Shown here one piece after another: positions 39,903-59,161 of a DNA stretch of 64,000 bases. Made by a program: the position numbers and the translations under genes. Location of the stretch: IMG/VR virus record IMGVR_UViG_3300033121_001571; one strand, written 5' to 3'. The DNA is from a virus. Taxonomy: Duplodnaviria > Caudoviricetes. The stretch's first letter is position 1; every line of letters begins with the position of its first letter. The notes under the pieces were generated by a model that saw nothing but the letters and a program-made list of their open reading frames with translations, was not told where the DNA came from and did not search any database.

Positions 39903-40942
39903 TCGTTTACCTCTTTTAACTTCCACGTCGTGGTGGAGCACCCAAAATTGTTTCTCTCGACCTCTGCGAGGTGCAGATTGTATAGATTCACGTTTGATTT
40001 ATCTGAGAATCCCCACACGCTAAGTCGAACTGGTTTCGCGCCGAGACCGAGTGCAGATATGACAGCATAACTCTTTTTGTTCTTTGTCATTTTGATCTCT
40101 AAAGACGTGGGAACAAACCAAACAATGTTCTTGTCACCTTCTTCAAGGGTCTCAATCGGATTGATCTCTTTTGTCTCTAGCTTAGCTAACATCTGTGGGC
40201 TGACAACAGATGTCACGTCAAAACTTCCAAATAACTCGATCTGAAACTGTGCTTGTTCTACTTTTGTCCACTCTGGAACGTTATCTCTGTAATATTCAGC
40301 TAACTCTCTCATTCTCTCCACACCAGCATACGGATTCTTTTTTGGCGATTTCTTTATCTCGTCGTTGTGTTCAATCAACACCTTGAATGCTTGGTGCCAA
40401 TTGCTGAATAATTTTCCTTGGCCCACCGCATCAAGAGAACCCAAAGCTTTTATCTTGATCAGAGTCTCTAAGACTCTTTTATTGAACTTTGAGTGTCTCC
40501 ACGTGCCGTCAGAGTTGTACAGCATGTCTTCTATATTTTTGTACGGTCTGTTCTGCAAGATCTCTTGCACAGCCGCTTCGCCGATACTCTTACAAGAGTA
40601 AAATGACGGCATGAACTTTTTCCCTGGAAGCACTGTCCATTCGTCTGAAGCATAGTTGACATCAATCTGAGCTATGTCGTAGCCCAATTGTTTGATCTCT
40701 GAAAATGCTACTGCTTTCTTTTCAGGACTGTTTAACATAGACTCAACATACGCAGTCAACCACTCCTTTTCAAAGTACGTCATCAACCACGCACACCAGT
40801 AACTGTCGATCGCATAAGCAACTGCGTGACTGTTTGAAGTCAGAACACCATTTGCTAAATAGAACTGGTGATCTGGGTGATCAACTTCAAGATCATACGT
40901 TTGGTGTTTTCCGATGGGGGTTATTGATTTGATGTTACTCAT
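39899..40942 (-). CDS. dnaE: DnaE fragment 5: IntC3 (40832-40942, 37 aa, ends Ser-Asn) plus C-terminal extein
   Basis: MSNIKSI...TYDLEV..PDHQFYLANGVLTSN|SHAVAYA; completes the conserved YGFNK-SHA motif. Confidence 0.95.
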   Translation of the reverse strand: MSNIKSITPIGKHQTYDLEVDHPDHQFYLANGVLTSNSHAVAYAIDSYWCAWLMTYFEKEWLTAYVESMLNSPEKKAVAFSEIKQLGYDIAQIDVNYASDEWTVLPGKKFMPSFYSCKSIGEAAVQEILQNRPYKNIEDMLYNSDGTWRHSKFNKRVLETLIKIKALGSLDAVGQGKLFSNWHQAFKVLIEHNDEIKKSPKKNPYAGVERMRELAEYYRDNVPEWTKVEQAQFQIELFGSFDVTSVVSPQMLAKLETKEINPIETLEEGDKNIVWFVPTSLEIKMTKNKKSYAVISALGLGAKPVRLSVWGFSDKSNVNLYNLHLAEVERNNFGCSTTTWKLKEVNE

Positions 40943-43849: not shown

Positions 43850-44607
43850 GTAGTTTTGATCACACTCTCTCTTGGTTTCATAAGATTGTAGAGAACTTGT
43901 TCTACGTGTTTGAACAAATCCCTGTCAAATCCACACTCTCCTTGAAAGACTCTCAACGCAGAATCAATGTTTAAAGCACGGTGAGTCTTCGGTTGCAAAC
44001 TTCGAAAACGGATGATGCTGTTCAGACAGTGCCTTGCTAAGTCTGGATCATGGGACCTTTCAATCTCTCTGCAGGCACGTTGTGCAAAAAACTCTATCTG
44101 TTGATTGTGTTCAGGTAAAAAACTCATATTTTTGCACCTTGTGATACAGTTCAACGCTTCTTCTCGCACCACTTCTACGTCTGAAGCGAGCGCGCTCACA
44201 AAAAACTCTCCAACAGCTACTTCAAAAAACGGAAGAACATCGATAAACGGATCTAGATTTCCGCAACACATGACATTTAATTGAACACCGTAATCAATTG
44301 GTGTGGGAGACGCAAACAAGAACAAAAAACTATTTTGATCAACTTTAACGTATTGATACATTGTAAACGCTAGATACGACAGCAAACCTATGTCTTTCCA
44401 ACCTGTTTTCACTAAGTGACTAAAGATAACGTAAGGCCACTCATCAAGTCTACGATTTTTACCAACAAAACACTTTAGTGCTTCTGTTGATCTGTTCTGA
44501 TTTGAAAGGTGCTCTGACCACTCTTTGCAGAGCTTATTGTATGTTTTTTCGCTGAAGATCATTGTTGAGTTAAGCAGAGATCTAAGTTGTCTGAAGACAT
44601 ACACCAA
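43846..44607 (-). CDS. Hypothetical protein
   Basis: Long ORF; no recognised motif. Confidence 0.6.
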   Translation of the reverse strand: MVYVFRQLRSLLNSTMIFSEKTYNKLCKEWSEHLSNQNRSTEALKCFVGKNRRLDEWPYVIFSHLVKTGWKDIGLLSYLAFTMYQYVKVDQNSFLFLFASPTPIDYGVQLNVMCCGNLDPFIDVLPFFEVAVGEFFVSALASDVEVVREEALNCITRCKNMSFLPEHNQQIEFFAQRACREIERSHDPDLARHCLNSIIRFRSLQPKTHRALNIDSALRVFQGECGFDRDLFKHVEQVLYNLMKPRESVIKTT

Positions 44608-45701
44608 TCACTACAATAGTTATTTCCTTCACCACACGCAATAAAAGTACCTGGAATGACTTTTGAACAGTATGAATTTCCTAACTTAAACACACCAGGA
44701 CTTGGATTTTTCAAAATCTTGAACAGATTGTATATTACACGATCACTGAACTTACCTCCTTCTTTGTATGAGAATTGATCGTATGATATACGAATAAGGG
44801 TCCATCCGTGTTGCACTATGTGTTCATCAAGCAATCGATCCATATTCCTAACATCATTAAAAACTTTTTCTCCTTTTATGCGAGGTTCAAAATGAATTAT
44901 ACCATCAAATTCAACATAAATACGTGCTGTTTTATCAGCAATATCAACTTGTTTTCGATGTGATTTATTTGTAAATACACTTGATTTAACAATCTGATTA
45001 TGTTTGAATTCATAAGGACTAGCGGTTAACAACAACTCAAATAACATTAACTCTGGTTTACTGTGCCATTTAGAATGTGCGGCGAGGGTGCATTTTTCAT
45101 AGAACTCATCAAAATGAGTATTACGCCAAGCTGTCAGACGTGCTGTTCGAATTGCAAGGATCTCTGGTCGAGCTGACGTTTTTTTTGCAGTGATGCGTGA
45201 TAGTTCGCGGCCCCTTGGAGACGAATTTCTTGATGCCATAGCTTCAGCTCGGCGTTTACGTTCATTTGGATTCGCCATAACAGCAGTAGAAACTGCAACA
45301 CTCATCTTAGCCTTATATGCAGTCAAATCGTCGCCACGTTCTTTTGCACGCTTCAACCATGCAAAATTCTGACCACGTTTCTTAAACGCAAGCTGTGTAG
45401 TAAGCGAAGTGAGCTCAGCGTCTGGATATGTAGTTATGTACTCCTTCTTGCTCATGTCATGGACTTGTGTCAAGTGTTTTGTAAGAGTACGACCTATAAA
45501 TCCGCAAATTCGACAAGTAACTGTGTCGTTGGCTGAAAGAACAGTTACTAGACACGCTTTTACGTGTTTTTCGTAGGGTCGCTGGTAAGAAAAGTTCTTA
45601 CCGCATCGGTCACAACGATATTGTATCCCTTTTCGTTGATCATCCACAATGGTAGCATCTCTCCCGTTTCCTTCGTCCTGAATTTGTGATTCCACGTGCA
45701 C
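44559..45701 (-). mobile_element. Free-standing Zn-finger Vsr/DUF559-like homing endonuclease (HEN3), after IntN3
   Basis: CDRC..H..C and CRIC..H..H fingers; SKPE..VDIA..IYVEFDG..H..D..GWTLIRI. Confidence 0.85.
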
Positions 45702-46282
45702 TTTACCTTTTCTCCAGTAGTGAGCTCTACTTCAACTAAGTCGAGAACACCGTGATCATGTTTCATGATCACGGGAATAATAATGTCATTTCCTGAAATC
45801 TCGTCTCTAGATCTGACTAGATCATTAGGGCAAACATCTTTTAACAACTTAGTCTCTCTGTAAGAGCCATCAAAATTATATATATTCAGAGGTTGTAAAA
45901 AGTACAAACTTTTATTGAAACCGTACCCAGCGAAATATAAGATCTTATCGTAAAGGTTGTTAGCAACATCAGCAGTGTAACCGTTCTTTATGCATCCTTG
46001 AACAAAGCTATCTCGCGTTTCTTGTGCAGCCTTCTTCGCCGCTTCACCGCCCGAGATGCTGCGCTTCATGATGGCGCGGCGAACCTCGTCACACTTGTCC
46101 TTCGGGAAGCCGGCCACCTTCTCGGCCAGTTCCATCACCTGCTCCTGAAAAATTATACAGTTGTGCACCAGAAGGCCATTTGCGAAGAAATTGTGGTTCT
46201 TCTTGACCTGGATGTCGTACACGGGCTGTGCAGGAGCACGCTTGATTGCACGGATCTTGATGGGAACTACATCAGGCATCAT
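45560..46282 (-). CDS. dnaE: DnaE fragment 4: IntC2 (46160-46282), 83-aa extein, IntN3 (45563-45910, starts Ser)
   Basis: VYDIQV..NHNFFANGLLVHN|CIIFQEQ...YGFNK|SLYF...VKCTWNHKF. Confidence 0.93.
   Translation of the reverse strand: MMPDVVPIKIRAIKRAPAQPVYDIQVKKNHNFFANGLLVHNCIIFQEQVMELAEKVAGFPKDKCDEVRRAIMKRSISGGEAAKKAAQETRDSFVQGCIKNGYTADVANNLYDKILYFAGYGFNKSLYFLQPLNIYNFDGSYRETKLLKDVCPNDLVRSRDEISGNDIIIPVIMKHDHGVLDLVEVELTTGEKVKCTWNHKFRTKETGEMLPLWMINEKGYNIVVTDAVRTFLTSDPTKNT
45999..46030. repeat. 32-bp direct repeat, copy 1
   Basis: tgaacaaagctatctcgcgtttcttgtgcagc, identical at 47429-47460. Confidence 0.95.
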
Positions 46283-47428
46283 CCACCTCGACAATATCGA
46301 ACTCATCGAAGCAACACACTTCTTGGTCGAGCTCGCCGCCTTTCAAACCCTCGAAAAGACCCGAACCCGTGCTACGATTGTAGAACATCGCATCATTGTT
46401 ACGATAATCGTCAATGAGTTTGACTTCAGTCCCAGCGTCGAACCATTCATCGGGACGAGAGATGTATTTGACACGCTTAACTGGTTGGAGAGGTGTAGAT
46501 GAAAAGAAGCCTTCCGCCCCATCACGCATCATCTTGACGTGGACAATTCTCTCGTTAAGATGATCTGCTTGCAGGCGTTCACCTTCGTCAACTAGCCTGA
46601 TCACATTGGGACATGCAGTCGTCTTCTCTACCCATAGTGGGTCAAGAGGCGACGGATGGTGTGGACACGCACGCCAGTCGTGTTGACGTTGACGCTCGAG
46701 CAGGCAAAACACACCCGTCAAGTGCGTGTAACAAACAACGTAATCCCTCATCATTCACACTCCTGTTCGCGATGCATTAAGCACGCAGCACATATATCGC
46801 GGCCAGGTGTTGACGTCCAAAATTGCTCGTGGCAATCAACACACGTTTGCGTTGGGCTGATGGACAACTTCGTTGCTACGCCGTGTGATGACATAGAACG
46901 AGACAACGCATCAGCGTCCAGCACAACGCGACGTGGGTTGATTTTCATTGCCAACGAACTTGCACATAGTTGACACACCGGTCCATGGACGTCCAACACA
47001 CGAGGACCATGATACTCAAGTTCCATATCGTTGCCCACTTCTTCATGGGCTCGAAACGTATCGAACCAATCGGCATAGGTGAGGTCCTCACGCTTAGCCA
47101 CTTCAGGATGTGACTTCAAGGTATTGATGAAATTCTTGAACGAGGTGAGCAGCTCTTCCTCGAAATCTTCGATCTTCATGCCTAAATTGTCCTCAAGTTG
47201 TGTGGGTAGTTCACAGCCTCAGACCCCCAGACGCGTCTCACCACATAACCTCGAGCCTCAGCCGCGCGGGTGAATGATTCATCGAGTCGATACTGTCGCT
47301 TCATCTTGGACGTCAGTTCGTGCTTTTCTGGATTGCCGTGCCAGTAGTCGCCATCGAACTCTACGAGAATGTTCTCATTTGGAACGTAGAAATCGAACTC
47401 ATGGTTGATGCCTTCAACGTGGCATCTG
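46031..47428. mobile_element. GC-rich foreign insertion (about 1.4 kb) from a related phage's dnaE locus
   Basis: Bounded by the 32-bp repeats; 46081-46140 is 36/60 G+C versus 23/60 for the largely synonymous native segment 47521-47580. Confidence 0.75.
46272..47179 (-). CDS. Two hypothetical ORFs within the GC-rich insert (46272-46754, 46751-47179)
   Basis: Coupled ORFs; Cys-rich C-terminus in 46751. Confidence 0.6.
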
Positions 47429-47712
47429 TGAACAAAGCTATCTCGCGTTTCTTGTGCAGCTTTCTTTGCAGCCTCGCCGCCAGAGATGCTTCGTTTCATG
47501 ATAGCTCTGCGAACTTCGTCACACTTATCTTTTGGAAAACCCGCAACTTTTTCTGCGAGTTCCATTACGCTTTCTTGAAATATCAAACAATTATGAACTA
47601 AAATAGAATTTGCAAAAAAATTACCATTCTTCTTGATTTGAAGATCGTAAACGGGTTGTGAAGGAACACGTTTGACCGCACGGATTTTGACGGGAACTAC
47701 GTTAGACATCAC
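47182..47712 (-). CDS. Chimeric ORF: IntC2' (47590-47712), about 53 aa of DnaE extein, then the C-terminal part of a Vsr-like endonuclease
   Basis: VYDLQI..NFFANSILVHN|CLIFQES...ETRDSFV then FDFYVP..ILVEFDGDYWHG..D..GYVVRRVW. Confidence 0.85.
   Translation of the reverse strand: MMSNVVPVKIRAVKRVPSQPVYDLQIKKNGNFFANSILVHNCLIFQESVMELAEKVAGFPKDKCDEVRRAIMKRSISGGEAAKKAAQETRDSFVHRCHVEGINHEFDFYVPNENILVEFDGDYWHGNPEKHELTSKMKRQYRLDESFTRAAEARGYVVRRVWGSEAVNYPHNLRTI
47429..47460. repeat. 32-bp direct repeat, copy 2
   Basis: Identical to 45999-46030. Confidence 0.95.
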
Positions 47713-47997
47713 TTGCCTTGTTGATCTGAAACTTTGATCTGAAACTCTTCGACGTTTGACTCATCTGCGCTATCTTCAACACAAAGCACTCGAAGATAAC
47801 GAATTGCACACGCTAAGAACTGTTCAGGAACCAAATTTGGTGTTTCGTGTTTTGGTACTATCTCTCTTGGAGAAAAAGTCTCTTCCACAGAGTCACACCA
47901 ATGTAAGATACCAGTTAGAGTGTTTGTTTTTACCATAAACACAAAACTACTGCACAGATACTTTCTGTTCACTTAAGTTTTAAGATCTAAACAGAGA

Positions 47998-48525
47998 TCA
48001 CAGATCAATAATGATATATTTGTCATTTCTTTTCATGACATTATCGCTAGATATGTCCCCACGCATTTTCACATAGATTCTCAAAAAATCTTTGAGATCA
48101 GAATCGGGCAGAGACTCTACGCTTTCTGGGTTGCTAACAACTTCATCTATGATGAATTTTTCATCTCTTGTCAGTTGATCTAACTTTTCCATCACAGCAT
48201 ACACTGCATAAACAATGTTATCACCCACTTCTTCATCATATCCTTTTAACTTGCCCACTTCAAAAATTTTCACAAATAGTTCAAAATCAGGAATAGACTT
48301 TAGTTTATTCAAATGATAATCAACGCCATCGCTGTCTGGAAACATCTCATATGTTGGCACAAGTTTTATCACTTTTCCTGCTGAATATTCCATGATAACT
48401 CCTTCGTTACCAAACGCAACCACGTTTCCAACGTTTGGAGGGAGGATTCCGTCTCTTTTAAGTTTAGGAATGATTGTTTCAATAAAGTATGAATCGTAAA
48501 AACCTTGGTTTCTTTTTGTAAACAT
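47998..48525 (-). CDS. Minimal protein-kinase-like protein
   Basis: FGNEG, VIKL, YAVMEKL, GDISSDNVM, IIDL. Confidence 0.7.
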   Translation of the reverse strand: MFTKRNQGFYDSYFIETIIPKLKRDGILPPNVGNVVAFGNEGVIMEYSAGKVIKLVPTYEMFPDSDGVDYHLNKLKSIPDFELFVKIFEVGKLKGYDEEVGDNIVYAVYAVMEKLDQLTRDEKFIIDEVVSNPESVESLPDSDLKDFLRIYVKMRGDISSDNVMKRNDKYIIIDL

Positions 48526-48528
48526 CTT

Positions 48529-49413
48529 TTATCTGTTCCAATCTGATCTGTCTTTGATGTGTGCTTCAATCACAATGACTTTTCCCCTGATAGCATCTTC
48601 AAAATCTTTTCTTGCAGTTGAGACAATATTTTTTACATTAGAAAGAAGCTCATCTAACTTGGGATCACCCGTTTCATTATAGTGAAATCCTCGAGTGTCA
48701 AGAATAGCCTGAGTAACGATTTCTGATATTACGTCTACCCAGTTGTAATTTCTAAACGCATTAGTAACAGCTGATTTCATTGTCAGCGCAGACACAATTT
48801 TTGGCCAAAAATAAAATTTGAAATAATCGTTCATATATTCGTTTTTTTCATTTTTGAAAGCATCAATGAACATTTTGTTGATAACTTTCATATACTTTCC
48901 CATTACAGAAATATTTGAAGTTTCATCGATCATAGCGTGTATAATCATCCAAGGTGTAGAAAGAAATCCCTTTTGAAGATGTTCAACTAGTGGAACAAGG
49001 ATCGCAGCACCTTGTTTTCTTGCTTCTTCTAATTGAAGAATTCTGTTTGATGGAACTCCAAATCTAGCTAAAATACTAGCATCACTATATCTTTCACGCG
49101 TTCTATCAGATGTTCTTCCCCTGTTTGATGCCCACCATGTAAATGCTGGTACTACGTAGATTGGAACTGACAGGTTCTTGTATAATTTAATCGCACTGTT
49201 GTAAAAGTTTTTGTTGTCAAAAAATTTCTTGACTTCTTTTCTATCTTTTTCGACGTCAGCATCACTTGAATGATTCTTAGTTTGTAAGACATAGTCTGAT
49301 TTTGCATTAACAGTCCAATCTTCTTCTCCAGCTGGCTCAATTCCAGCTAAAGGAGCTTCTGAGATCACTGAAGATCTGATAAGAGATCGGAGTTCGCTAA
49401 GTTTGATTTTCAC
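48529..49413 (-). CDS. Leader-motif protein, paralogue B1
   Basis: (M)KIKLSELRSLIRSSVISE; TPWMIIHA; close paralogue of 50110. Confidence 0.8.
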   Translation of the reverse strand: MKIKLSELRSLIRSSVISEAPLAGIEPAGEEDWTVNAKSDYVLQTKNHSSDADVEKDRKEVKKFFDNKNFYNSAIKLYKNLSVPIYVVPAFTWWASNRGRTSDRTRERYSDASILARFGVPSNRILQLEEARKQGAAILVPLVEHLQKGFLSTPWMIIHAMIDETSNISVMGKYMKVINKMFIDAFKNEKNEYMNDYFKFYFWPKIVSALTMKSAVTNAFRNYNWVDVISEIVTQAILDTRGFHYNETGDPKLDELLSNVKNIVSTARKDFEDAIRGKVIVIEAHIKDRSDWNR

Positions 49414-49432
49414 AATCACTAAATATCAACAC
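49312..49432. repeat. 121-bp exact direct repeat, copy 1
   Basis: Identical to 50896-51016; covers the TANTTA box, the leader coding region and the last codons of IntN2. Confidence 0.9.
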
Positions 49433-50074
49433 TTCATCACTGTCTGTCAAAGACCCAGCGTTTACCCACCCACGGTTCTTTGTCATGACTAAGTGGTCTT
49501 CAGTGACAGTGAGTCGTTTTCCGTCCTCTAACTCTATCTCGATCACGTCTCTTACACCGTTCGACACAGCAGCTACAACCACGTCACTCTCTATTTCAGC
49601 AGATTCCTCGTTGTATGACGGGAGAGTGACGCCGACCATCTGCTTATCAACGATTTCCTTGATAGTGATCTCACCGTTGTCTGTCATCACTCTTGAGTCA
49701 CCAGTTAAGCAACTGTAAGTCTTCTCAAGAATCTTATTGATTCTATCGTCACCCCAGTCCATCTGCTTGTTGTTATTCTTAGCGTCAATATACAACTTGT
49801 CTACGTCAGCAGCAAGTGGGCCAGGACGATAGATCGAAGTCAGAGTCGCAATGTCAATGATGTTCTCTGGTTTTGCTTTGACAAACAGGCGCTGAGCGCC
49901 CTTGCCAGTGACTTGAAATATGCCAGCAAACTTTGCTTCTTCATAGACCTTATAGACTTCTGGATCTTCCAGATCCATCTTTGATGGATGCATGTGTTCG
50001 CTGTGCCACTCTTTGATCTCATCAAAAGAGATCTTATCATTTGCAACGTTGTTGACTGACTTTACTTTTGCCAC
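49397..50074 (-). CDS. dnaE: DnaE fragment 3: vestigial IntC strand, extein, IntN2 (49400-49711)
   Basis: AGIFQ, SIYRPGP, KTYS|CLTGDSRV...TVTEDH. Confidence 0.93.
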   Translation of the reverse strand: MAKVKSVNNVANDKISFDEIKEWHSEHMHPSKMDLEDPEVYKVYEEAKFAGIFQVTGKGAQRLFVKAKPENIIDIATLTSIYRPGPLAADVDKLYIDAKNNNKQMDWGDDRINKILEKTYSCLTGDSRVMTDNGEITIKEIVDKQMVGVTLPSYNEESAEIESDVVVAAVSNGVRDVIEIELEDGKRLTVTEDHLVMTKNRGWVNAGSLTDSDEVLIFSDCENQT

Positions 50075-50109
50075 AGCGACAGTCTACTGACTGAGCTAAT
50101 TCTTTACAC

Positions 50110-50997
50110 TTAGCCTTGAATATGAGCTTCAATCACAATGACTTTTCCTCTGATAGCATCTTCAAAATCTTTTCTTGCAGTTGAGACAAGATCACTTATC
50201 TTTGCTAAGAGACTATCGATCTCTTGATCACCAGTCTTGTTGTAATGAAATCCTCGAGTGTCAAGAATAGCTTGCGTAAGAATTTCAGCTGCAATATCAT
50301 ACAACGAACGACCCTTAAACTTATAAACTCTAGCTGATTTCATCGTCAGTGAAGAAATAACACCTGGAAGCAGGTGGTTAAAATACCTTTCTTGTTTCTT
50401 GCTCTTAATTTGACCGTCAAAATCTTCGCCTTCTAAAAATAGATAAACGATCTCACTTACATACTTTCCCATGACAGACGACTCTGTCGATTCATCGATC
50501 ATAGCGTGGATGATCATCCAGGGCGTAGAAAGAAATCCTTTCTCAAGATTCTCAACTAGTGGAACAAAGATCGCTGCGCCTTGTTTTCTTGCTTCTTCTA
50601 AAGCTACGATCTTTTCTGGAGGTACACCAAACCCAGCTAAAATACTAGCATCTTCACTTCTTTCATAAGTTCTCTTAATGCGTCCTCTATCATCAAATTT
50701 AGATCCTCGTCCTGCAGCAAACCATGTAAATGCTGGCACTACGTAGATTGGAACCGACAGGTTCTTATACAACTTAATCGCGCTGCTACGAAAATTTTCA
50801 TTGTTAAAGAATTTTTTGACTTCTTCTCTATCTTTTTGAACAGTTGGCACATCATAATTTTTGAATCGAGCAATAGTCTTAGAGTCCATACCTTTAGTCC
50901 AATCTTCTTCTCCAGCTGGCTCAATTCCAGCTAAAGGAGCTTCTGAGATCACTGAAGATCTGATAAGAGATCGGAGTTCGCTAAGTTTGATTTTCAC
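50110..50997 (-). CDS. Leader-motif protein, paralogue B2
   Basis: Same N- and C-termini as 48529. Confidence 0.8.
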   Translation of the reverse strand: MKIKLSELRSLIRSSVISEAPLAGIEPAGEEDWTKGMDSKTIARFKNYDVPTVQKDREEVKKFFNNENFRSSAIKLYKNLSVPIYVVPAFTWFAAGRGSKFDDRGRIKRTYERSEDASILAGFGVPPEKIVALEEARKQGAAIFVPLVENLEKGFLSTPWMIIHAMIDESTESSVMGKYVSEIVYLFLEGEDFDGQIKSKKQERYFNHLLPGVISSLTMKSARVYKFKGRSLYDIAAEILTQAILDTRGFHYNKTGDQEIDSLLAKISDLVSTARKDFEDAIRGKVIVIEAHIQG

Positions 50998-51016
50998 AAT
51001 CACTAAATATCAACAC
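50896..51016. repeat. 121-bp exact direct repeat, copy 2
   Basis: Identical to 49312-49432. Confidence 0.9.
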
Positions 51017-51040
51017 CAGCTTACAACGCGTACGCGTCGG

Positions 51041-53040
51041 TCACCAGTAACATGTACAGAACAAAGTGTTAACTCCTTCAATGTCTTTTTTTGAAAAAGA
51101 GTTATGGTGTAAAAAACTAACGAGTATATTTTTCTCTATGTCAAACACAAATTTCAATGTACTTTTTATTGGGTATGCAAAAAGGTTCGGAAATTTAGAA
51201 TTAAGTTCTCCCACGTACAAACCGAATATCTTTTCATTTTTGTCTAATAAAAGAGGTCTGTTGAAATTTGTTCTATGATAATAGACTCTTCCACAAGGAA
51301 GCACTCGAACAAGATTTCCAACTAAAAACTCATTTTTCATTTAGGAACTTTAAGTTTTCTTAGTAGAGTTATGGTGTGTTACGTAACAACTCATACAACA
51401 ACAATGAAGTGCGCTATAACATAGTTCATCACTGCACTGTATAAAATCAGATGTCACAAATTTGACAAGTTTTTTACTTAACAGATCAAACAAAATAACA
51501 CTAACAAAATTCACTGGTCTGTTAAACTTATAACTGTTTATATCTTTTCTGTGAAGATCTGTCACTGAGATCAAATAACCATCAAGATCTTGGTGATCAA
51601 GACTTGTGTCTTCTTCCTCTTTACAGATAGCGTTAACAGCACCGTGAGCAATTATTTTCACAACGGTGTTTTCTAAGCTCTTAGTTAGTATCATCTTCAT
51701 CTAAACACTTGTACTAGTGAGTGCTTTAAAATGAGATCAAAGAATTCACTAATGCTTTCGTTTCTTATCGAAGTGTTTTACAACACAACTTTTGCAGTAA
51801 CAAGTCCATTTCGATTGATCGCTAATAAAGTTTATGATAGAACCAGACGTTCTAAAGATAACAACTGATTTAACACAGACATCAAACATTGTAACTCTCA
51901 CAAAAAACTTGTGTGGATGGTTTGCAAATCTGTTACGATTAGGTAGATCAGACACTGAAATCACATAACCATAACAAATAGTTATGTTCTCTAAACTCTC
52001 ATTTTGTGTCTTTCTAAGAACTCTGACTCTACCATGTGGGTGAACTCTTATGAGAGTGTTAATTGTAGATGTAATGTTCTTAATCATTTTTAACGTTTTT
52101 CAAAACTAACGCTAATAAAAGATCTTACAACAAACGTTTGTGTACAGATCTATGCAATAAGAACAGCCACACCCAACAATGTTTTTATTGTTGTTGTGTG
52201 CATATCTCATAGCACTGATCAACTGAAATTCAATTAACAAATTTTCACTCAGATCAAAAATAGTGATCGCTGACTTTGTTTTAGACAGAGAACAAATTGA
52301 AACAACGATACCAAAAAATATCTGTCCACGAGGGAAAATTGACTTCTCACGAGAAACACCTTTTGAAATAAAGCCAGTTTCTCCAAAACAATGAGGAGCA
52401 AAAAATTTGAGATCACCAACTTGAGTCATTGACTACCTTTAAGGTATTGGCAAAACGCTTTTACAACTCAAACAAGTACACCTTAAAACATTGTTCACAG
52501 AAACAAGTTCACTCGGCGTAGAAAACTTCATAACGTTCATGTTCATAAATGAAAACATCGTGATCTTGTCTTGCGTTCGAGAAAGAACAAGACCAACGTG
52601 AATGAACGTTGGATTGTGTAAGTACAACGAATACCAAAGAGATAGATCGTGGGGTATTATCTGAATAATCTGTCCCACAGCAAAAACGTGTCCAAGCACT
52701 TTGGCGCTCAATGATTTGTGTGCCTCTACTAAATACTCATACACTCGAAACACTCACACTTAATCACGCTTAACACGTTATCATAAAGTGATTGTTCAGT
52801 TATCGAAAACTGCACTAACTTACCTAATTTGATGTCTAAAAAAACAACAAGTACCATACCCTCAGACTTCCACTCAGTGTTCAAAACAATACCAATTAAA
52901 GCTGAATAAGGATGAAGAGTAAATGTTTTAAACGTTTTTTCTCCAATGATATCAATCTCACTGTCGTGAGGATGAACTTTGATCACTTTAGCAATAATTC
53001 TATTTTTCACAATTTTCTCACATAGACAACGTTTTTGCAA
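51041..53040 (-). CDS. Tandem array of six divergent ~100-116 aa paralogues (PH...FD...CxCxxC)
   Basis: ORFs 51041, 51350, 51749, 52112, 52439, 52729 share V.PH(G/D), G.V.S, FD....LV.F and C-terminal CxC(xxC). Confidence 0.7.
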
Positions 53041-54827
53041 CCATAGATCTTAAATAACTTGTGTTCAAATGCTAGACTCTCTTGAGAAGCTATGTTTGGA
53101 ATAGAACGCACAAGAAAACGATCAAGTCTGTGGTGACAATCTGTCCACCAAAATCTCGGTTTTGTCTCGTGACTCACAACAAAACCTGAACTCAAATAAC
53201 CGTTACCAGAACCACCCAAACGTGTATCACGATATGTCATGATTCTGTCAAAAGAGTTTTCTTTAGCCCAAGTTGCGGCAGCGCTGATCAGTTTTGACAT
53301 TCCTCCCACAACTACCGTGTTCTTCAAAAAAGCAACTCTAGCAATCTCTAGAGTCTTATCACTCCATTTTTTGATCTGGTGTGGCTTTCTAACAGTCAGT
53401 GTTGCTACAGTCTCGCCATTTTCTGTCTCAAGAATAAATCCTTTTGAAGCTGGCACGTTACCATCGATGTGATTTTCAACAAGAAATTCCGCAACAGATG
53501 CTGGATGAACTGCACGTACTCTGAGCCTTCGAGCAAAGATCTTCTTTGCTTTTTGCAGTTTGACTCTGATCATGCTCTTGATGATCTCTCGCTTGGTGAG
53601 ATCTTGCCATTCGTCTTCAAACACATGTAACAAAGAAGTGTTTGTTGTAGAGGCTAGATCTGACTTTTTCTGGTGATACTCACTGTCTGATATCACAGCA
53701 TCAGAGTGCCAGTATAATCCATTACACTCAATCGCAAATCTCTGATCACTTGACAGTATGTCTAGCTCTAACGGAGCTATTCGTTTTCGATCATTAAGCG
53801 TTGCTCCCGGATCGAACGTCAAGACGTATTCATAGATCTCACTCTGCCACCTTGAAATGACACGTGGATTGCAAGTTGAACACAGCTTTCCCTTACATAG
53901 AGATGACAGTTTTACTTGACAAGTCTCTCCGCACTCTTTACAAGAGACAACAATAAGACTTTGAAATCCAGCAACTTCATATGAATCAACATTCCATTTA
54001 TCTTTCACCGATTCAAGTCTCTCAGCGATCATCTCATGAGTGATTCTAAACGGTGAATTCACTCCCAACTCTATGAGTCTTTTTCTTGTCTGAATTATCT
54101 GTTGTTTGACTCTGTCAGCACAAGCTTTGTGTACCCAGTGACTGGATTTGACACTCTCACTGAGGTTTTCAGAACGTCTCTTTATTCTATCATCAGTCTC
54201 AGACGTTTGTCCGTGTTGAGTCCAGTGCTTTTCTTTCTTCCATTTTTCTGTGAGTGTCTTAGATATCTGAACAGCCGCTTGAGCTACTGAAGCACTGTTT
54301 TCTTTCGTCTGCCCAGAGCGCCAGTGACCGTTCTTTTTTATGAAATCTCTGCACTTTGTTGCAGCGATTCTCACAGACTCGCTCGTCTGTTCTGTCAGAC
54401 CCTTGTTCCAAGCTGGAGTGTTATTTCGTTTTCTAGTTTCGGCTCCACGAAGCTGAGAGTTTTTCTTGCTACACTTTCCGCAGAGCCTCTCATAACCAGA
54501 CTGAAATGACAAGAACTTGACAGGCCCAAAACACTGAGTGCACGGTCCTGGGTGAGAGACAAACAACAAATAAGCATCTTCAGCTAAGACACTGTGAACT
54601 TTTGCTAAGTGAGCTCGAACACTGTTAAGACTTGCTTTCATCTGTTGAGAGCAGATCGGACACTTCGAAAGAAGTGATATCGTCGGAGGGCCTGAGGTCC
54701 CTCGCGAAAACTTTTCCTCTTGCGGTGATAACTTCTTGGTCTCCAAACATTCTTTTTGTTGATCCGTCTTCAAGACAGATCTCAATCCATCCTCGTCGTT
54801 GTCTTTCATCTTTGATGATGAGTTCAA
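53007..54827 (-). mobile_element. Large Zn-finger Vsr/DUF559-like homing endonuclease (HEN2) with GNAT-like C-terminal domain; true start uncertain
   Basis: CPIC..H..H finger, PAWNKGLT repeats, ELDI...AIECNGLYWHS, LLHVFEDEW, IFARRL. Confidence 0.85.
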
Positions 54828-55512
54828 TTGTTCTCTCTACCAGTCTAAGCGTTTCAAGGCCAAGCAGATCATATTTAATGAAATTTCCGATCGCCTCTAG
54901 ATGTTTATAATTTACTCCCTCTACCCAAGGACTCTGAGGTTCCCCTTTTGATGTGATAAGAGGCATCTTATCAGGAAGATCGTCAGCTATTAGCACTCCA
55001 CCCGCGTGACGACCCAAAGAACGACCCTGTTTGAACAAGACATTCATAGACTCACCCACTTCAGGGTGCTTGTCAATGAAGTCTTTGAAAGGCTTATCGT
55101 ACTTCAGAGCATCTTCATACGTGAGAACAAACAAGTTCTTGTCATCACCGTGCTTTGTTGTTGCTTTTCTGACGCTTTGTTCAACTGTCTTCGTGGCAGC
55201 ATTGACTTCTTCGAACGGTATGCCATAGAACTTGCTGAGATCTTTTAGAAGAGATTTGACTTTAAATGCGTTGACATTTGAGATCGGAACAACGTTTTCA
55301 TATCCAAAGAAATTTCTCAGCTGATCAAGCACGAGATCTCTGTTAGCAAGATCAGAATCGATATCGGGAGACCCAGAGTTATGCGTTAAAACCCAATTGG
55401 TGTTGTCTTGTGATATCCAAAATGTATGATTATTCTCAACTTCTATATCAATAAGACGTGTACTTTCTTCAACTATTTGAATCGATTCTATCTTAGCTGT
55501 GTTTGTTAACAA
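54625..55512 (-). CDS. dnaE: DnaE fragment 2 (catalytic palm): IntC1 (55378-55512), extein, vestigial IntN half (about 54628-54786)
   Basis: WVLTHN|SGSPDIDSD, GRHAGG, KYDLLGL. Confidence 0.95.
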   Translation of the reverse strand: MLTNTAKIESIQIVEESTRLIDIEVENNHTFWISQDNTNWVLTHNSGSPDIDSDLANRDLVLDQLRNFFGYENVVPISNVNAFKVKSLLKDLSKFYGIPFEEVNAATKTVEQSVRKATTKHGDDKNLFVLTYEDALKYDKPFKDFIDKHPEVGESMNVLFKQGRSLGRHAGGVLIADDLPDKMPLITSKGEPQSPWVEGVNYKHLEAIGNFIKYDLLGLETLRLVERTIELIIKDERQRRGWIEICLEDGSTKRMFGDQEVITARGKVFARDLRPSDDITSFEVSDLLSTDESKS

Positions 55513-56482
55513 GACTTTCCTTATGTTTAGAAATTAAATGTTTTGTATTCTTGTAATTACGGTTTTCTAAATTTGGAATTACCTTATAAAGACCTTCATT
55601 ACGTAATGAAGCATAAAAATCTTCCATATAGATAACATCTATAATAATTCCTTGTGCAATTAACAAATTGCGTATTTTCATATTAGAATTTAACAATTTT
55701 GAAAACAGTGAATCACTTTCTCTAACACCTTTTAATTCAATATAACGATTTTCATTGGGAAAGAAAAAATCAGGCGTATAACAAACATCCCTACCTTCAC
55801 TTGTTACATGAAAAGTTTTGCTTTCATAAAGCGGTACATTTGATTTATAGATACAATATCGATAAAAATCTGCCTCAAATGAACTTTTGAAATAAGGACT
55901 ATTCTCAATATCTAAACGCCATCCAGATCTACCATTTATATGGATTGCTATCATTCCTTTTGATTGAGCTTCAAAAGTACATTTTTTACTACAAAATCTC
56001 ATTTTATAACTCTGCTTAGTAGATTTTACTAAGCCACATACTTGGCACACACATTTTATTTTGTTTTCTTTACTCTTTTGCGTACATTTAGCACTACAAT
56101 ACTTTCTTTTTTGATTTTTTGATTCAAAAATCACATTACAATAATTACACGTCATTTGAACAATTGGATTCTTAGTTAGAGTCTTAGAAGTTTCTATTTT
56201 AGAACACGCTCTAGAACAAAATTTTCGCCCCAATTTAGATTGGGGCACAAAGTATTCTTTGTTACATAACAGACAATTTTTCATAAACCGACCTACAATA
56301 AAATTTCTAACGCTAGAGCGCTTTTGTTTGTTTTTAACTTGACACTCAGTAGAACAGTACATTCTAGCTAACTTGCTAGTTGAACCTTTACCCACGCCAG
56401 AGCACTCAATTTGAAATATTTTTTCACAATATTTACAAGTTTTCTTTACTATGATCATAGTGGTACGTATACAACAGATCAT
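55493..56482 (-). mobile_element. Multi-treble-clef Zn-finger PD-(D/E)XK homing endonuclease (HEN1) between IntN1 and IntC1
   Basis: Four CxxC..(F/Y)CS..C repeats; KSSFEA..YTPDFF..YIELKG; AT-rich (55621-55680 is 16/60 G+C). Confidence 0.87.
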
Positions 56483-58253
56483 CAGTTGTCAATTCATGTG
56501 TTCGTTTCTTTATGAATTTTCCATCCCCAGCACAAACTAACCACTCATGATTTTCAGAACACTTAAATGTCGTACCATTTACCTTAATAAGGTACGTTTT
56601 TGTAACATGTTGCACAGTTTTATATGTTACTCTTTGTAAAGAACCGTCTTGTGTCAAGACTTTATCTCCAACTTTAATTTCATCAAGAGACGTAGTTTTA
56701 TTTTTTTCTAAAAGAACACGAGTATTTGGTTCTAAACACCTATGAACAGAGAGAAATCTGCTAAACGGTAGGTCCCACTTGATTGGATCTAAGTCTGTGA
56801 TCTCTAAAACATAGTTAACAAGTGAACCCGCACCAGAGCCTCTACCAGGACCAACTAGAGTGACGCTTCTAGCAAGTTCCATGATCTTCTGATAAGAGAT
56901 GAAATAATCTGAGTTTTTCATCTGCTTGATGACAGACAACTCTTCTTTAAGTCTCTCTACGTACTCTTCTTTCTCTGCAAGGCCCTTCTTGATCATGCCT
57001 TCTTTGCACAGTTTACACAAGTGACTGAAAGACGAAGAGTCTTCTGGGACAAGTCTTTTGACAGGGAACTTTGGCGTCCTATCAGGTTCAACAACGCCAA
57101 TCACTTGGTGAGCAATGTCGTGTGTTCTCTCAATCGCTGCAGCGATAACTTCGTCATCATAGAACGAAGTGCCCTCTTTAGAACGCAAGTACTCATCCCA
57201 CATCTGAGAAGCGTTCTTTGGATACAATTCACACTTCAAATCATCTTTAGACTTCGGAAGAGAGTCAGGTGAGTATGTCTTGTAGTTCATAAACCCAAGC
57301 TTCTTGTATAACTCTCTTTCTTTCCAGACGTTTGGATTATAGTAGTGAGCATCACCAGTGACCACAAGTTGATCTGTGACACCGTTTCTCTTGGCAAATT
57401 CTAGTATTGATCTGTTTATCAGATTCTGAGCAAGAATTCTGTTAAATTGCAGTTCAAGATAACAGTTGCCCTTTCCAACAATATCTGTCATCAGATCATA
57501 GAAGTTTCCAACTGCTGTAACACACTTCTCCATAAGAGACGGATCGTCCAACAACGACTGGTCCATAGAATCAAACTTGATCTTCTGAAGTTCTTGAAAC
57601 ACGTTATAACTTGGAAGTCCACCCAAGCAAGCAGAGGTGACAATGATGTCACCATCTTTTGCAGCCTCACGAAGGATGCGAGAATCAATTCTGGGGAACC
57701 TATAAAAACCCTTTAAGTAGCCTAAAGCTACTGCCTGAAACATTTTCTGGAGCCCACGTGATGACTTTGGCAGTACCACCAGGTGATGGCGGCGGTTGAT
57801 TGGGTTGAAGTGCTTTGTCGTCTTTGTCTCTTCTTCATCTTCAATAGTCAAAGCATTTGAAACTTCAATGTCTTCAGTCTCATCATTTTGATCAACAACA
57901 GCAATGAGCTTCGTCTGAAGCTCTTCTTGTTTTTTCAGCAGTTTTGCTGCTGTTTTTTTCTCTGTTGCCGCTAGATCGTGTTCCTCTTTGTCTCTCTGCC
58001 ACTGTTGTAGATCAGGGTGAAAATATGCTTCTACGCCTGGGATATACTTGAAGTTTTCCCCCGCCGATTTCCACTTTTCAACAAATAATTGAGCGTGAGC
58101 ATAAGAGTTGCAGTGACCGTGCTCAGTGATTGCGTGTGCGTCTAGACCGTTTTCTTTGCAAAACTTGAAGTGTTCGTCTGGGTATCCCAAACCATCAAAT
58201 GCAGAAAACCCTGTGTGGGCGTGAAGTCCAACGAATTTCTTGGGAAATGGCAC
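56433..58253 (-). CDS. dnaE: DnaE fragment 1 (PHP domain) plus IntN1 (56436-56738); start revised to GTG 58253
   Basis: LHAHT.FS.FDG, AITEHG, GVEAY, DAHY, GPGRGSGAGSL, FSRFLSVHR|CLEPNT...CSENH. Confidence 0.96.
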   Translation of the reverse strand: MPFPKKFVGLHAHTGFSAFDGLGYPDEHFKFCKENGLDAHAITEHGHCNSYAHAQLFVEKWKSAGENFKYIPGVEAYFHPDLQQWQRDKEEHDLAATEKKTAAKLLKKQEELQTKLIAVVDQNDETEDIEVSNALTIEDEEETKTTKHFNPINRRHHLVVLPKSSRGLQKMFQAVALGYLKGFYRFPRIDSRILREAAKDGDIIVTSACLGGLPSYNVFQELQKIKFDSMDQSLLDDPSLMEKCVTAVGNFYDLMTDIVGKGNCYLELQFNRILAQNLINRSILEFAKRNGVTDQLVVTGDAHYYNPNVWKERELYKKLGFMNYKTYSPDSLPKSKDDLKCELYPKNASQMWDEYLRSKEGTSFYDDEVIAAAIERTHDIAHQVIGVVEPDRTPKFPVKRLVPEDSSSFSHLCKLCKEGMIKKGLAEKEEYVERLKEELSVIKQMKNSDYFISYQKIMELARSVTLVGPGRGSGAGSLVNYVLEITDLDPIKWDLPFSRFLSVHRCLEPNTRVLLEKNKTTSLDEIKVGDKVLTQDGSLQRVTYKTVQHVTKTYLIKVNGTTFKCSENHEWLVCAGDGKFIKKRTHELTTDDLLYTYHYDHSKENL

Positions 58254-58264
58254 GAGTTTGTGAA

Positions 58265-58293
58265 GATATACTGCTAGTAAGCAAACAGTTACA
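58265..58293 (-). promoter_or_regulatory. Promoter candidate for dnaE: TGTAAC-N17-TATATC
   Basis: Lies between the terminator and the dnaE start; same upstream element as 6171. Confidence 0.5.
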
Positions 58294-58300
58294 CAGCACC

Positions 58301-58333
58301 AAAACAAAAGGCAGGAACTGTATAGTTCCTGCC
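58301..58333 (-). terminator. Rho-independent terminator
   Basis: GGCAGGAACT-ATAC-AGTTCCTGCC followed by TTTTGTTTT on the minus strand. Confidence 0.85.
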
Positions 58334-58354
58334 CAAGAGAATTTTAAACTATTT

Positions 58355-59161
58355 TTAGCCCAAGACTTCTTCTAAAATCTTGTCAATCTTTCTTGAGAAA
58401 GACTCACCTTTCCACTTCTGTGTGTGTCCACTCTGTGGATCAGTGACTGTCAAATCACCGTCATCTCCAACAGAAATAGCTGCTTGATCTCCGTTCTTAA
58501 ACCTAGTGTCAGGTCCTGCAAGATATGCACGGCCCTTCAAACGAGTGTGTGCAGGAGCACCCCCTAATTTACCATAAATCTTGTATGTTGTCTTCTTTCC
58601 TTTTCCTGCTGCTTGTTTTGCTTGTTTTTCTGCGGGAGGAACAGGCACTGGTTTGCTGACAGGACGTTCTGCAGGAGGAACTGGAGATTTATCCGTATCA
58701 TCAAGAACCCAATTTAGCAAACTCGAATCAATTTCAGAATCTTTGAAATCTGAAGCTGCTAGACTTGGACTGACTACGGCAGGAACTTGTGGTTCGTTTC
58801 TAACAAGAGAGTCTTCAGAACCCAACGCAGCATCTGCGACTGCTTTAGACACTCGTCCAGGATTACGTCCTTGAGGAAGATTTGGTCTAGACGCAACAAT
58901 TCCATTAGCAGAGTCATAAGCTTTCTTTGCTTCAGGAGTACCAATTTGGTTAATTGCTCTCTTGACTTTTGCCATCAATTCTGGATTTTTCTTTGACTCA
59001 TCGTTATATGATGGGTTCAAAGACCTCTTTAGCTCCGTTGCCGCAGCCATGACGTCCATCATAGATGCACCATCTGGTAGACCTAACACTGCATATGGTG
59101 ATTCTGCCACCTCTGAAATTAAACGCCTAAGTTGCTTAACGTTGATTCGCATCTCAGACAT
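58355..59161 (-). CDS. Leader-motif protein with degenerate J-domain and Pro-rich linker
   Basis: MRINVKQLRRLISE; SPYAVLGL...KRSLNPS (HPD lost)...KKAYD; PVPPAE repeat. Confidence 0.7.
   Translation of the reverse strand: MSEMRINVKQLRRLISEVAESPYAVLGLPDGASMMDVMAAATELKRSLNPSYNDESKKNPELMAKVKRAINQIGTPEAKKAYDSANGIVASRPNLPQGRNPGRVSKAVADAALGSEDSLVRNEPQVPAVVSPSLAASDFKDSEIDSSLLNWVLDDTDKSPVPPAERPVSKPVPVPPAEKQAKQAAGKGKKTTYKIYGKLGGAPAHTRLKGRAYLAGPDTRFKNGDQAAISVGDDGDLTVTDPQSGHTQKWKGESFSRKIDKILEEVLG

Follow-up and report, generated by a model that had tools for sequence, protein, structure and literature searches.

A candidate non-splicing docking pair derived from a split intein at a break in a fractured phage dnaE gene

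In fractured genes, naturally split inteins flank a free-standing homing endonuclease gene, as described for the gp41-1, NrdJ-1 and DnaE-1 to DnaE-3 loci (Dassa et al., 2009, PMC2677866). Here we describe a related locus in a virus of the Caudoviricetes (IMG/VR record IMGVR_UViG_3300033121_001571), of which a stretch of 64,000 nt, referred to as the window, was analysed. The window carries dnaE, the gene for the alpha subunit of DNA polymerase III (PolIII-alpha), as five genes F1–F5, all on the minus strand. Junctions 1, 3 and 4 of this dnaE are ordinary live split inteins. Junction 2, between F2 and F3, has the layout of a fractured gene: two host open reading frames (ORFs) on one strand, the first with a C-terminal extension of the type of an N-terminal intein fragment (IntN), then a free-standing endonuclease gene, and then the second host ORF with an N-terminal extension of the type of a C-terminal intein fragment (IntC). 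In contrast to the fractured genes, however, junction 2 retains no more than the IntN half that adjoins the split site and the first IntC strand. We consider it probable that these two pieces, called tail and head below, form a non-splicing, intein-derived docking pair that joins an F1-F2 chain to an F3-F4-F5 chain.

Association of split intein fragments without splicing is exploited in engineered, splicing-dead split inteins, which serve as affinity or heterodimerisation tags. These are man-made point mutants of full-length fragments, whereas the natural pair described here is trimmed to ∼50 + 7–14 residues. The split DnaE inteins of Npu and Ssp assemble by capture and collapse, in which a disordered, anionic half of the IntN captures the cationic IntC (Shah et al., 2013, as summarised in a review, PMC11766414). 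The F2 tail corresponds to Npu IntN residues 52–101, the capture half, and is acidic, and the F3 head is basic. Junction 2 differs from the Npu and Ssp inteins in lying at another DnaE insertion site and in lacking both a pre-folded N-terminal half for the collapse step and any subsequent chemistry. Genes in pieces with interaction tails are known from the Aeh1 nrdA-a/mobE/nrdA-b locus (Friedrich, 2007; Crona et al., 2011, PMC3045599), where an essential, replication-related gene is likewise split by a free-standing endonuclease gene. In Aeh1 the charge polarity is reversed and the tails act in the dimerisation of heterodimers, not in the joining of fragments. An origin of the Aeh1 NrdA tails from intein remnants was speculated upon, with no sequence match in databases (Crona et al., 2011); the junction 2 pair, in contrast, has explicit intein homology and recurs across many lineages and two host genes, though it is known here from sequence only. 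Splitting of polymerase genes by endonuclease genes was also reported in the Jug-phage paper (2026), which offers no mechanism.

The features that make up junction 2 are the following.

55512-54625, minus strand: F2, 295 residues, consisting of IntC1, extein and tail
54790..55377, minus strand: F2 extein (residues 46-241), palm/NTPase region of PolIII-alpha, extending to where the fingers start (Pfam PF07733)
54628..54789, minus strand: F2 C-terminal tail (residues 242-295, 54 residues), beginning WIEICLEDG
54736-54747, minus strand: FGDQ at the block B position of the tail, where TxxH is expected
50074-49397, minus strand: F3, 225 residues, GTG start
50033..50074, minus strand: F3 N-terminal head, 14 residues, a first strand followed by a variable linker
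49712..50032, minus strand: F3 extein (residues 15-121), PolIII-alpha finger domain (Pfam PF17657, E 7e-24)
49400..49711, minus strand: IntN2 (F3 residues 122-225; Pfam Intein_splicing/Hint), intact with Cys1 and TxxH (TEDH), the paralogue to which the tail aligns

The F2 extein aligns with residues 400–578 of E. coli alpha and 460–655 of the Taq protein, both solved PolIII-alpha chains, and this alignment places junction 2 close to residue 580 of the E. coli protein, where the fingers begin. In unsplit relatives ∼12 residues bridge the F2 and F3 extein ends, and neither tail nor head is found there. Thus, the two exteins form one contiguous sequence, to which tail and head have been added as C- and N-terminal extensions at the break; unsplit homologues lack them, as is the case for interaction tails.

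By BLASTP the tail aligns with the window's own IntN2 at 19/44 identities (E 5e-5), and the match is confined to the distal half of IntN2. An earlier note on this DNA had reported the same alignment at 17/38; the tail stretch quoted there is correct, but its end was set too early, as the ORF continues for 16 residues past "...SDDI". The tails of relatives fall into two classes, class 1 (c1) with [FY]GD[QE] at block B and class 2 (c2) with a strand of the G-x-K-H-R type. Both were compared by hhalign with a reference of 45 genuine IntNs from the same polymerase family. Against IntN columns 54–102 the c1 tails scored a probability of 96.6% and the c2 tails 96.7%, and c1 against c2 gave 97.8%, so that the two classes are also homologous to each other. 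The hhalign score of 56.2 (96.6%) compares with at most 16 and at most 1.6% for 40 column-shuffled controls. At the level of sequence profiles, the similarity between tail and IntN is far beyond chance.

A search of 1.84 billion representative proteins with the tail profile yielded 858 matches. Among the 134 strong top matches listed, 120 carry TxxH together with an upstream block A, and 112 stop at the protein C-terminus. Judged by these motifs, the strong matches are genuine split IntN fragments, more than 100 in number. Among PDB sequences the tail best matches the NrdJ-1 split intein (E 4.3e-7, residues 76–105), and it thus shares a sequence family with the inteins of fractured genes. An AlphaFold2 (AF2) model of the tail alone contains five short strands, with a predicted local distance difference test (pLDDT) score of 73. 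In VIA, residues 8–52 of this model superpose on Npu DnaE residues 52–96 (Z 3.7–4.5, root-mean-square deviation ∼2.1 Å), and 41 of 42 rows are inteins or Hint domains. The top rows from Foldseek are also almost all inteins, none of them at E 0.001 or better. A Pfam scan of 37 single tails, which are too short for Pfam, gave only two Hint matches, both weak (E 0.026). Both the sequence and, with weak Z (3.7–5.1), the model thus show the retained part to be homologous to the Hint fold. The profile comparisons lead us to conclude that the tail and the distal half of split IntNs are truly homologous.

The head is much shorter. In 24 relatives of F3 the protein begins with M-x-K-[VI]-x-S-[VI], where K3 is conserved in at least 90%; a linker variable in both length and sequence follows, and then the extein. 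The motif is present in 26 of 29 heads, in 14 of 23 true IntC starts and in 2.5% of background ORFs, counts that are descriptive only, as the motif was defined after seeing the data. By this motif, the head resembles the first strand of IntC fragments from the same family.

None of the elements needed for splicing was found at either side of the break. No block A precedes the tail: W242 directly abuts the extein, and hhalign reaches IntN columns 54–102 only. The tail therefore does not provide the N-terminal nucleophile of a functional split intein, and Cys246 of CLEDG becomes E, K, S or T in relatives. Block B has lost its TxxH, with FGDQ in the window, [FY]GD[QE] as the c1 consensus and no His at this position in c2. 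The head has neither block F/G nor a terminal Asn (HN), nor a Cys, Ser or Thr nucleophile at +1, and the residues preceding the conserved Phe after the head differ among relatives. Neither edge of the module has a conserved nucleophile, and the five catalytic residues of the split inteins in fractured genes are absent from junction 2. With Cys1 and block A, TxxH, blocks F/G, the terminal Asn and the +1 nucleophile all missing, protein splicing should be impossible here. An Rfam scan of window positions 44000–59000 detected no family and no intron-like RNA. The absence of block A, the FGDQ in place of TxxH and the likeness of the head to a first IntC strand without block F, HN or +1 nucleophile had all been pointed out in the earlier note; the former two are borne out by the translation, hhalign and the alignment of relatives, the latter by the motif shared with IntCs of the same family. 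Two matches from the representative library, P0220 (TEDQ) and P0255 (TEDE), are full-length split IntNs in which the block B His is replaced, and these may be intermediates between live and dead forms.

Among metagenomic relatives the tail is present in ∼70 of 141 distinct F2 cores, in the two classes described above, with T32, G35 and D46 of the tail invariant. In the closest pair, L093 and L095, the ratio of non-synonymous to synonymous change (omega) is 0.09 for the tail and 0.04 for the polymerase core. Over 15 pairs the proportion of non-synonymous differences (pN) in the tail is 0.04–0.42 and that of synonymous differences (pS) 0.32–0.78. As judged from these rates, the tail is under constraint, though more weakly than the catalytic core. 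Tail and head co-occur in each of the nine distinct loci retrieved with both sides, and contiguous alleles have neither. Tails of c1 are paired with heads of 15–16 residues before the conserved Phe (10/10), and tails of c2 with heads of 12–13 residues (5/6). The mean net charge is −3.9 for c1 tails, −3.1 for c2 tails and +1.5 for heads. A prediction of the tail–head complex from the alignments of tails and heads scored 0.22, relative to a mark of 0.32, and is used here neither for nor against binding.

The 141 F2 cores form a tree in which split alleles are intermixed with unsplit ones, and at least 9–11 changes are forced by well-supported branches. The core closest to that of the window is unsplit (L016, 83% identity). 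The identical F2 of the window was found on eight contigs. In L093 and L095, F2 and the endonuclease gene are syntenic, whereas the flanks on both sides are unrelated and F1 is not upstream; the dnaE fragments are dispersed in the genome in some relatives.

One contiguous F2-F3 protein, P0070 (L097:6001-7398), carries an insertion of 37 residues (262–298) exactly at the position of junction 2. It consists of a shortened tail, a turn of four residues and a head-like strand, and AF2 predicts it to fold into a small beta unit (pLDDT 75–90). The model had no Foldseek match at E 0.001 or better, and its intein rows in VIA are weak (Z 4.0 and 2.8) and tied with an unrelated row. P0070 looks like a natural re-fusion of tail and head.

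The pair is not restricted to dnaE. Among the tail-profile matches without TxxH are two N-terminal fragments of the helicase UvsW. In L101:5001-7537 (a 45-kb Logan contig, ERR14707361) UvsW-N ends with a homologous tail lacking TxxH and is followed by an ORF of 298 residues that has an HNH-like motif by eye and no Pfam match; in the UvsW-C of this locus a basic, MKI-type head precedes the conserved TWQS motif. A similar uvsW split is located at L100:2030-3224. UvsW-C fragments start with MKI[KR][SK]I, and this head is kept in four lineages that are only 51–53% identical to each other. Unsplit UvsW has no head, and no nucleophile follows the head in the split UvsW-C. A search for related loci with the UvsW-N P0254 returned nothing, and one with P0258 returned 80 distant uvsW loci, none with a tail. 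In a tree of tails and genuine IntN ends (55 columns, mostly unresolved) the dnaE and uvsW tails group together, apart from the genuine IntNs.

The 4.5-kb gap between F2 and F3 contains eight ORFs, all on the same strand as dnaE. It is filled by an endonuclease gene and by cargo that lies outside the proposed clasp.

53007..54827, minus strand: free-standing homing-endonuclease-like gene, a maximal ORF of 606 residues (PHROG 3339 "homing endonuclease", E 5e-57)
50110..53040, minus strand: cargo between the endonuclease gene and F3 (ORF list)
53040-51041, minus strand: six tandem paralogues of ∼100 residues (paralogy by alignment)
51003-50110, minus strand: ORF of 297 residues

The endonuclease-like ORF has a zinc finger at its N-terminus and a Mom/GNAT-like C-terminal part. 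Between 54628 and 54827 its 5′ end overlaps the tail DNA in another frame, over at least the zinc-finger start and at most 67 codons; in L093 and L095 the corresponding overlap is 29 nt. The ORF following the tail is 55–58% identical to the window's endonuclease in L040, L093 and L095, and 30% identical in L051 and L055, where it lies beside c2 tails. In L014 the gap instead holds an endonuclease-like ORF bearing NUMOD, and further relatives have other ORFs. The gap ranges from 271 bp without a gene (L018) to the 4.5 kb of the window. Thus, the tail–head pair persists without an endonuclease gene in L018 and beside unrelated endonuclease families elsewhere.

At loci with the same endonuclease family (L040, L093 and L095, each compared with the window) tail pS is 0.32–0.61 and core pS 0.73–0.82, a comparison that for the tail involves only ∼30 synonymous sites. 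The lower tail pS is not seen in comparison with L018 and L035, both of which lack this family of 560–606-residue endonucleases. The low tail pS may reflect co-conversion with the endonuclease gene. No sharp edge of a co-conversion tract was detected by sliding identity in L093 versus L095 or in the window versus the unsplit L016.

The cargo ORFs gave no Pfam or PHROG match. The ∼100-residue paralogues have in common V-x-P-H-G near their start, an F-D strand and, at the C-terminus, a C-x-C-x-x-C motif, and similar runs of small ORFs also follow the endonuclease gene in L093 and L095. Two paralogues of ∼296 residues flank F3 (50110-51003 and 48529-49419); their first ∼36 residues are identical and they match no family.

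The remainder of the fractured dnaE consists of live junctions.

58307-56433, minus strand: F1, PHP and palm regions, with IntN1 at its end
after F1, minus strand: HNH-like endonuclease ORF
55378..55512, minus strand: IntC1 (F2 residues 1-45), live split intein of junction 1, ending in HN followed by Ser in the translation

F4 and F5 bear live intein halves as identified by Pfam. IntN3 (45563-45910) is non-canonical in having a Ser start (after GYGFNK), as is IntC3 (40832-40942), which ends in SN instead of HN and is followed by a +1 Ser. IntC2 and the extein start behind it are found in two near-identical copies (47182-47712 and 45560-46306), of which the upstream one continues in frame into a Vsr-like nuclease core. 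The GC content, 0.476 in 46001–48000, is higher between the two IntC2 copies than elsewhere in the window (0.35–0.43).

The sequence-level tests named in the earlier note, which had interpreted junction 2 as a docking pair, came out as predicted. The exteins are contiguous, the ORF behind the tail matches a homing endonuclease family, tail and head are retained jointly in ∼70 diverged relatives, non-synonymous change is well below synonymous change, as expected under purifying selection, and neither the Cys of CLEDG nor the Rfam scan gives a sign of splicing at the protein or RNA level. We propose that a homing-endonuclease cassette would have split dnaE within a surface loop where the fingers begin, and that splicing would never repair this break. 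F2 now ends with ∼50 residues homologous to the capture half of an IntN, and F3 begins with the first strand of an IntC. Splicing by the three live split inteins would leave the polymerase as an F1-F2 chain and an F3-F4-F5 chain. The tail, which is acidic, and the head, which is basic, would zip into a small Hint-like beta unit, which would tie the chains together at the cut loop, beside the native interface between palm and fingers.

Several points weigh against this proposal. The binding of tail to head, and with it the role in assembly, is inferred from the sequence. The structural matches of the tail are weak in absolute terms (Foldseek E >0.001, Z at most 5.1). The strand of the head is only ∼7 residues long, and its likeness to IntC consists of a short motif defined post hoc. 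The tail evolves 1.5–2 times faster than the polymerase core. The Aeh1 NrdA tails are essential and yet dispensable for heterodimer formation (PMC3045599), and by analogy the extein interface may do most of the holding here too. Finally, a second polymerase elsewhere in the phage is possible, as the analysis covers the 64-kb window and not the whole genome.

The main rival to docking follows from the Aeh1 comparison. Tail and head could be functional without clasping each other, each stabilising its own cut end or acting in replisome assembly, while the palm/fingers interface alone holds the chains. This would match Aeh1, where the tails are needed for activity and not for heterodimer formation, as well as the AF2 model, in which the tail folds into a beta unit on its own. 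A separate role for each piece does not, however, predict that they always co-occur, that tail class tracks head length, or that they are oppositely charged, like the halves of real split inteins. In P0070, moreover, a four-residue turn links both into one predicted beta unit, and the pieces retained are precisely the two that adjoin the canonical split site of real split inteins. On balance we find a role of this kind unlikely, though it deserves to be kept in mind. That tail and head are instead neutral, decaying leftovers of an old intein or endonuclease insertion could be suggested by a tail less conserved than the polymerase core and by a head linker that varies in length and sequence. 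Such leftovers would hardly have kept an open frame and the motif in ∼70 relatives whose cores are synonymously saturated, nor invariant columns and an omega of ∼0.09 in the closest pair. The pair has also outlasted the loss of the endonuclease gene in L018, and uvsW lineages of only 51–53% mutual identity keep the same pair; we therefore regard neutrality as very unlikely.

Two further explanations would make a clasp unnecessary. A covalent link between F2 and F3 might still form, by an atypical kind of protein splicing that could use Cys246, or the two might be joined already in the RNA. The CLEDG motif around Cys246 does resemble block A, and three live split inteins act in the same gene. 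Against this, other residues replace Cys246 in relatives, a terminal Asn or Gln is missing, the +1 position holds no conserved nucleophile, and the gap to be bridged, free of any Rfam intron family, measures 4.5 kb with eight same-strand ORFs, so that covalent joining seems to us barely credible. Alternatively, the fractured dnaE might be out of use, with replication carried out by another polymerase. Further polymerases could lie beyond the window, and the duplicated start of F4 (47712-47182) indicates a locus in flux. A discarded gene would, however, not be expected to keep five open fragments with conserved catalytic motifs and a core omega of ∼0.04, nor to occur with an identical F2 on eight contigs and with the same layout in many independent viral contigs of 45–320 kb. 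Disuse of dnaE is thus highly improbable, and we retain the docking pair as the best explanation of junction 2.

How the docking pair arose is a separate question. The earlier note had spoken of remnants of an intein. The homology to the distal half of an IntN bears this out, but a decayed resident intein is not required, since a cassette of this form from the outset also fits. Decay of a resident intein may have taken place; in our inference it is more likely that an endonuclease cassette carried along the intein DNA next to the split site. Such an origin would explain why only these two pieces are kept and why no full intein allele is seen at the site; among relatives, a full intein at the position of junction 2 was not found. 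It would likewise account for sites lacking a +1 nucleophile and for tail DNA that is less diverged than the core where the endonuclease family is shared, with a pS of 0.38–0.47 for the tail and 0.75–0.82 for the core. The patchy spread, with split and unsplit alleles interspersed, and the absence of a conserved nucleophile after the head in dnaE as in uvsW fit a cassette that has been non-splicing since its insertion. More tentatively, tail, endonuclease gene and head could together constitute a single mobile homing cassette that never splices and has split-intein docking pieces at its flanks. Such a cassette could enter essential genes even where a +1 nucleophile is lacking, and the clasp would render the fission harmless.

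A full-text search of the literature, outside subscription journals, found no description of a natural, non-splicing docking pair made from half an intein. This agrees with the earlier note, which knew of no account of this end state, with the qualification that Crona et al. (2011) had speculated on a similar origin for the Aeh1 NrdA tails; the present homology gives that speculation substance at the sequence level. If our interpretation is correct, docking joins RNA splicing and protein splicing as a third outcome when a mobile element interrupts a gene, one in which the association module is kept and the chemistry dropped. It would then also explain why endonuclease insertions in phage replication genes are tolerated at positions unsuited to the splicing of an intein. 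For annotation this calls for caution, as "fragmented" polymerases and helicases of this kind are probably functional multi-chain enzymes. The tails and heads are candidates for small natural heterodimerisation pairs (∼50 + 7–14 residues, at least two classes) that can be tested as orthogonal docking tags, and they would provide a natural system in which the capture step of split-intein assembly is isolated.

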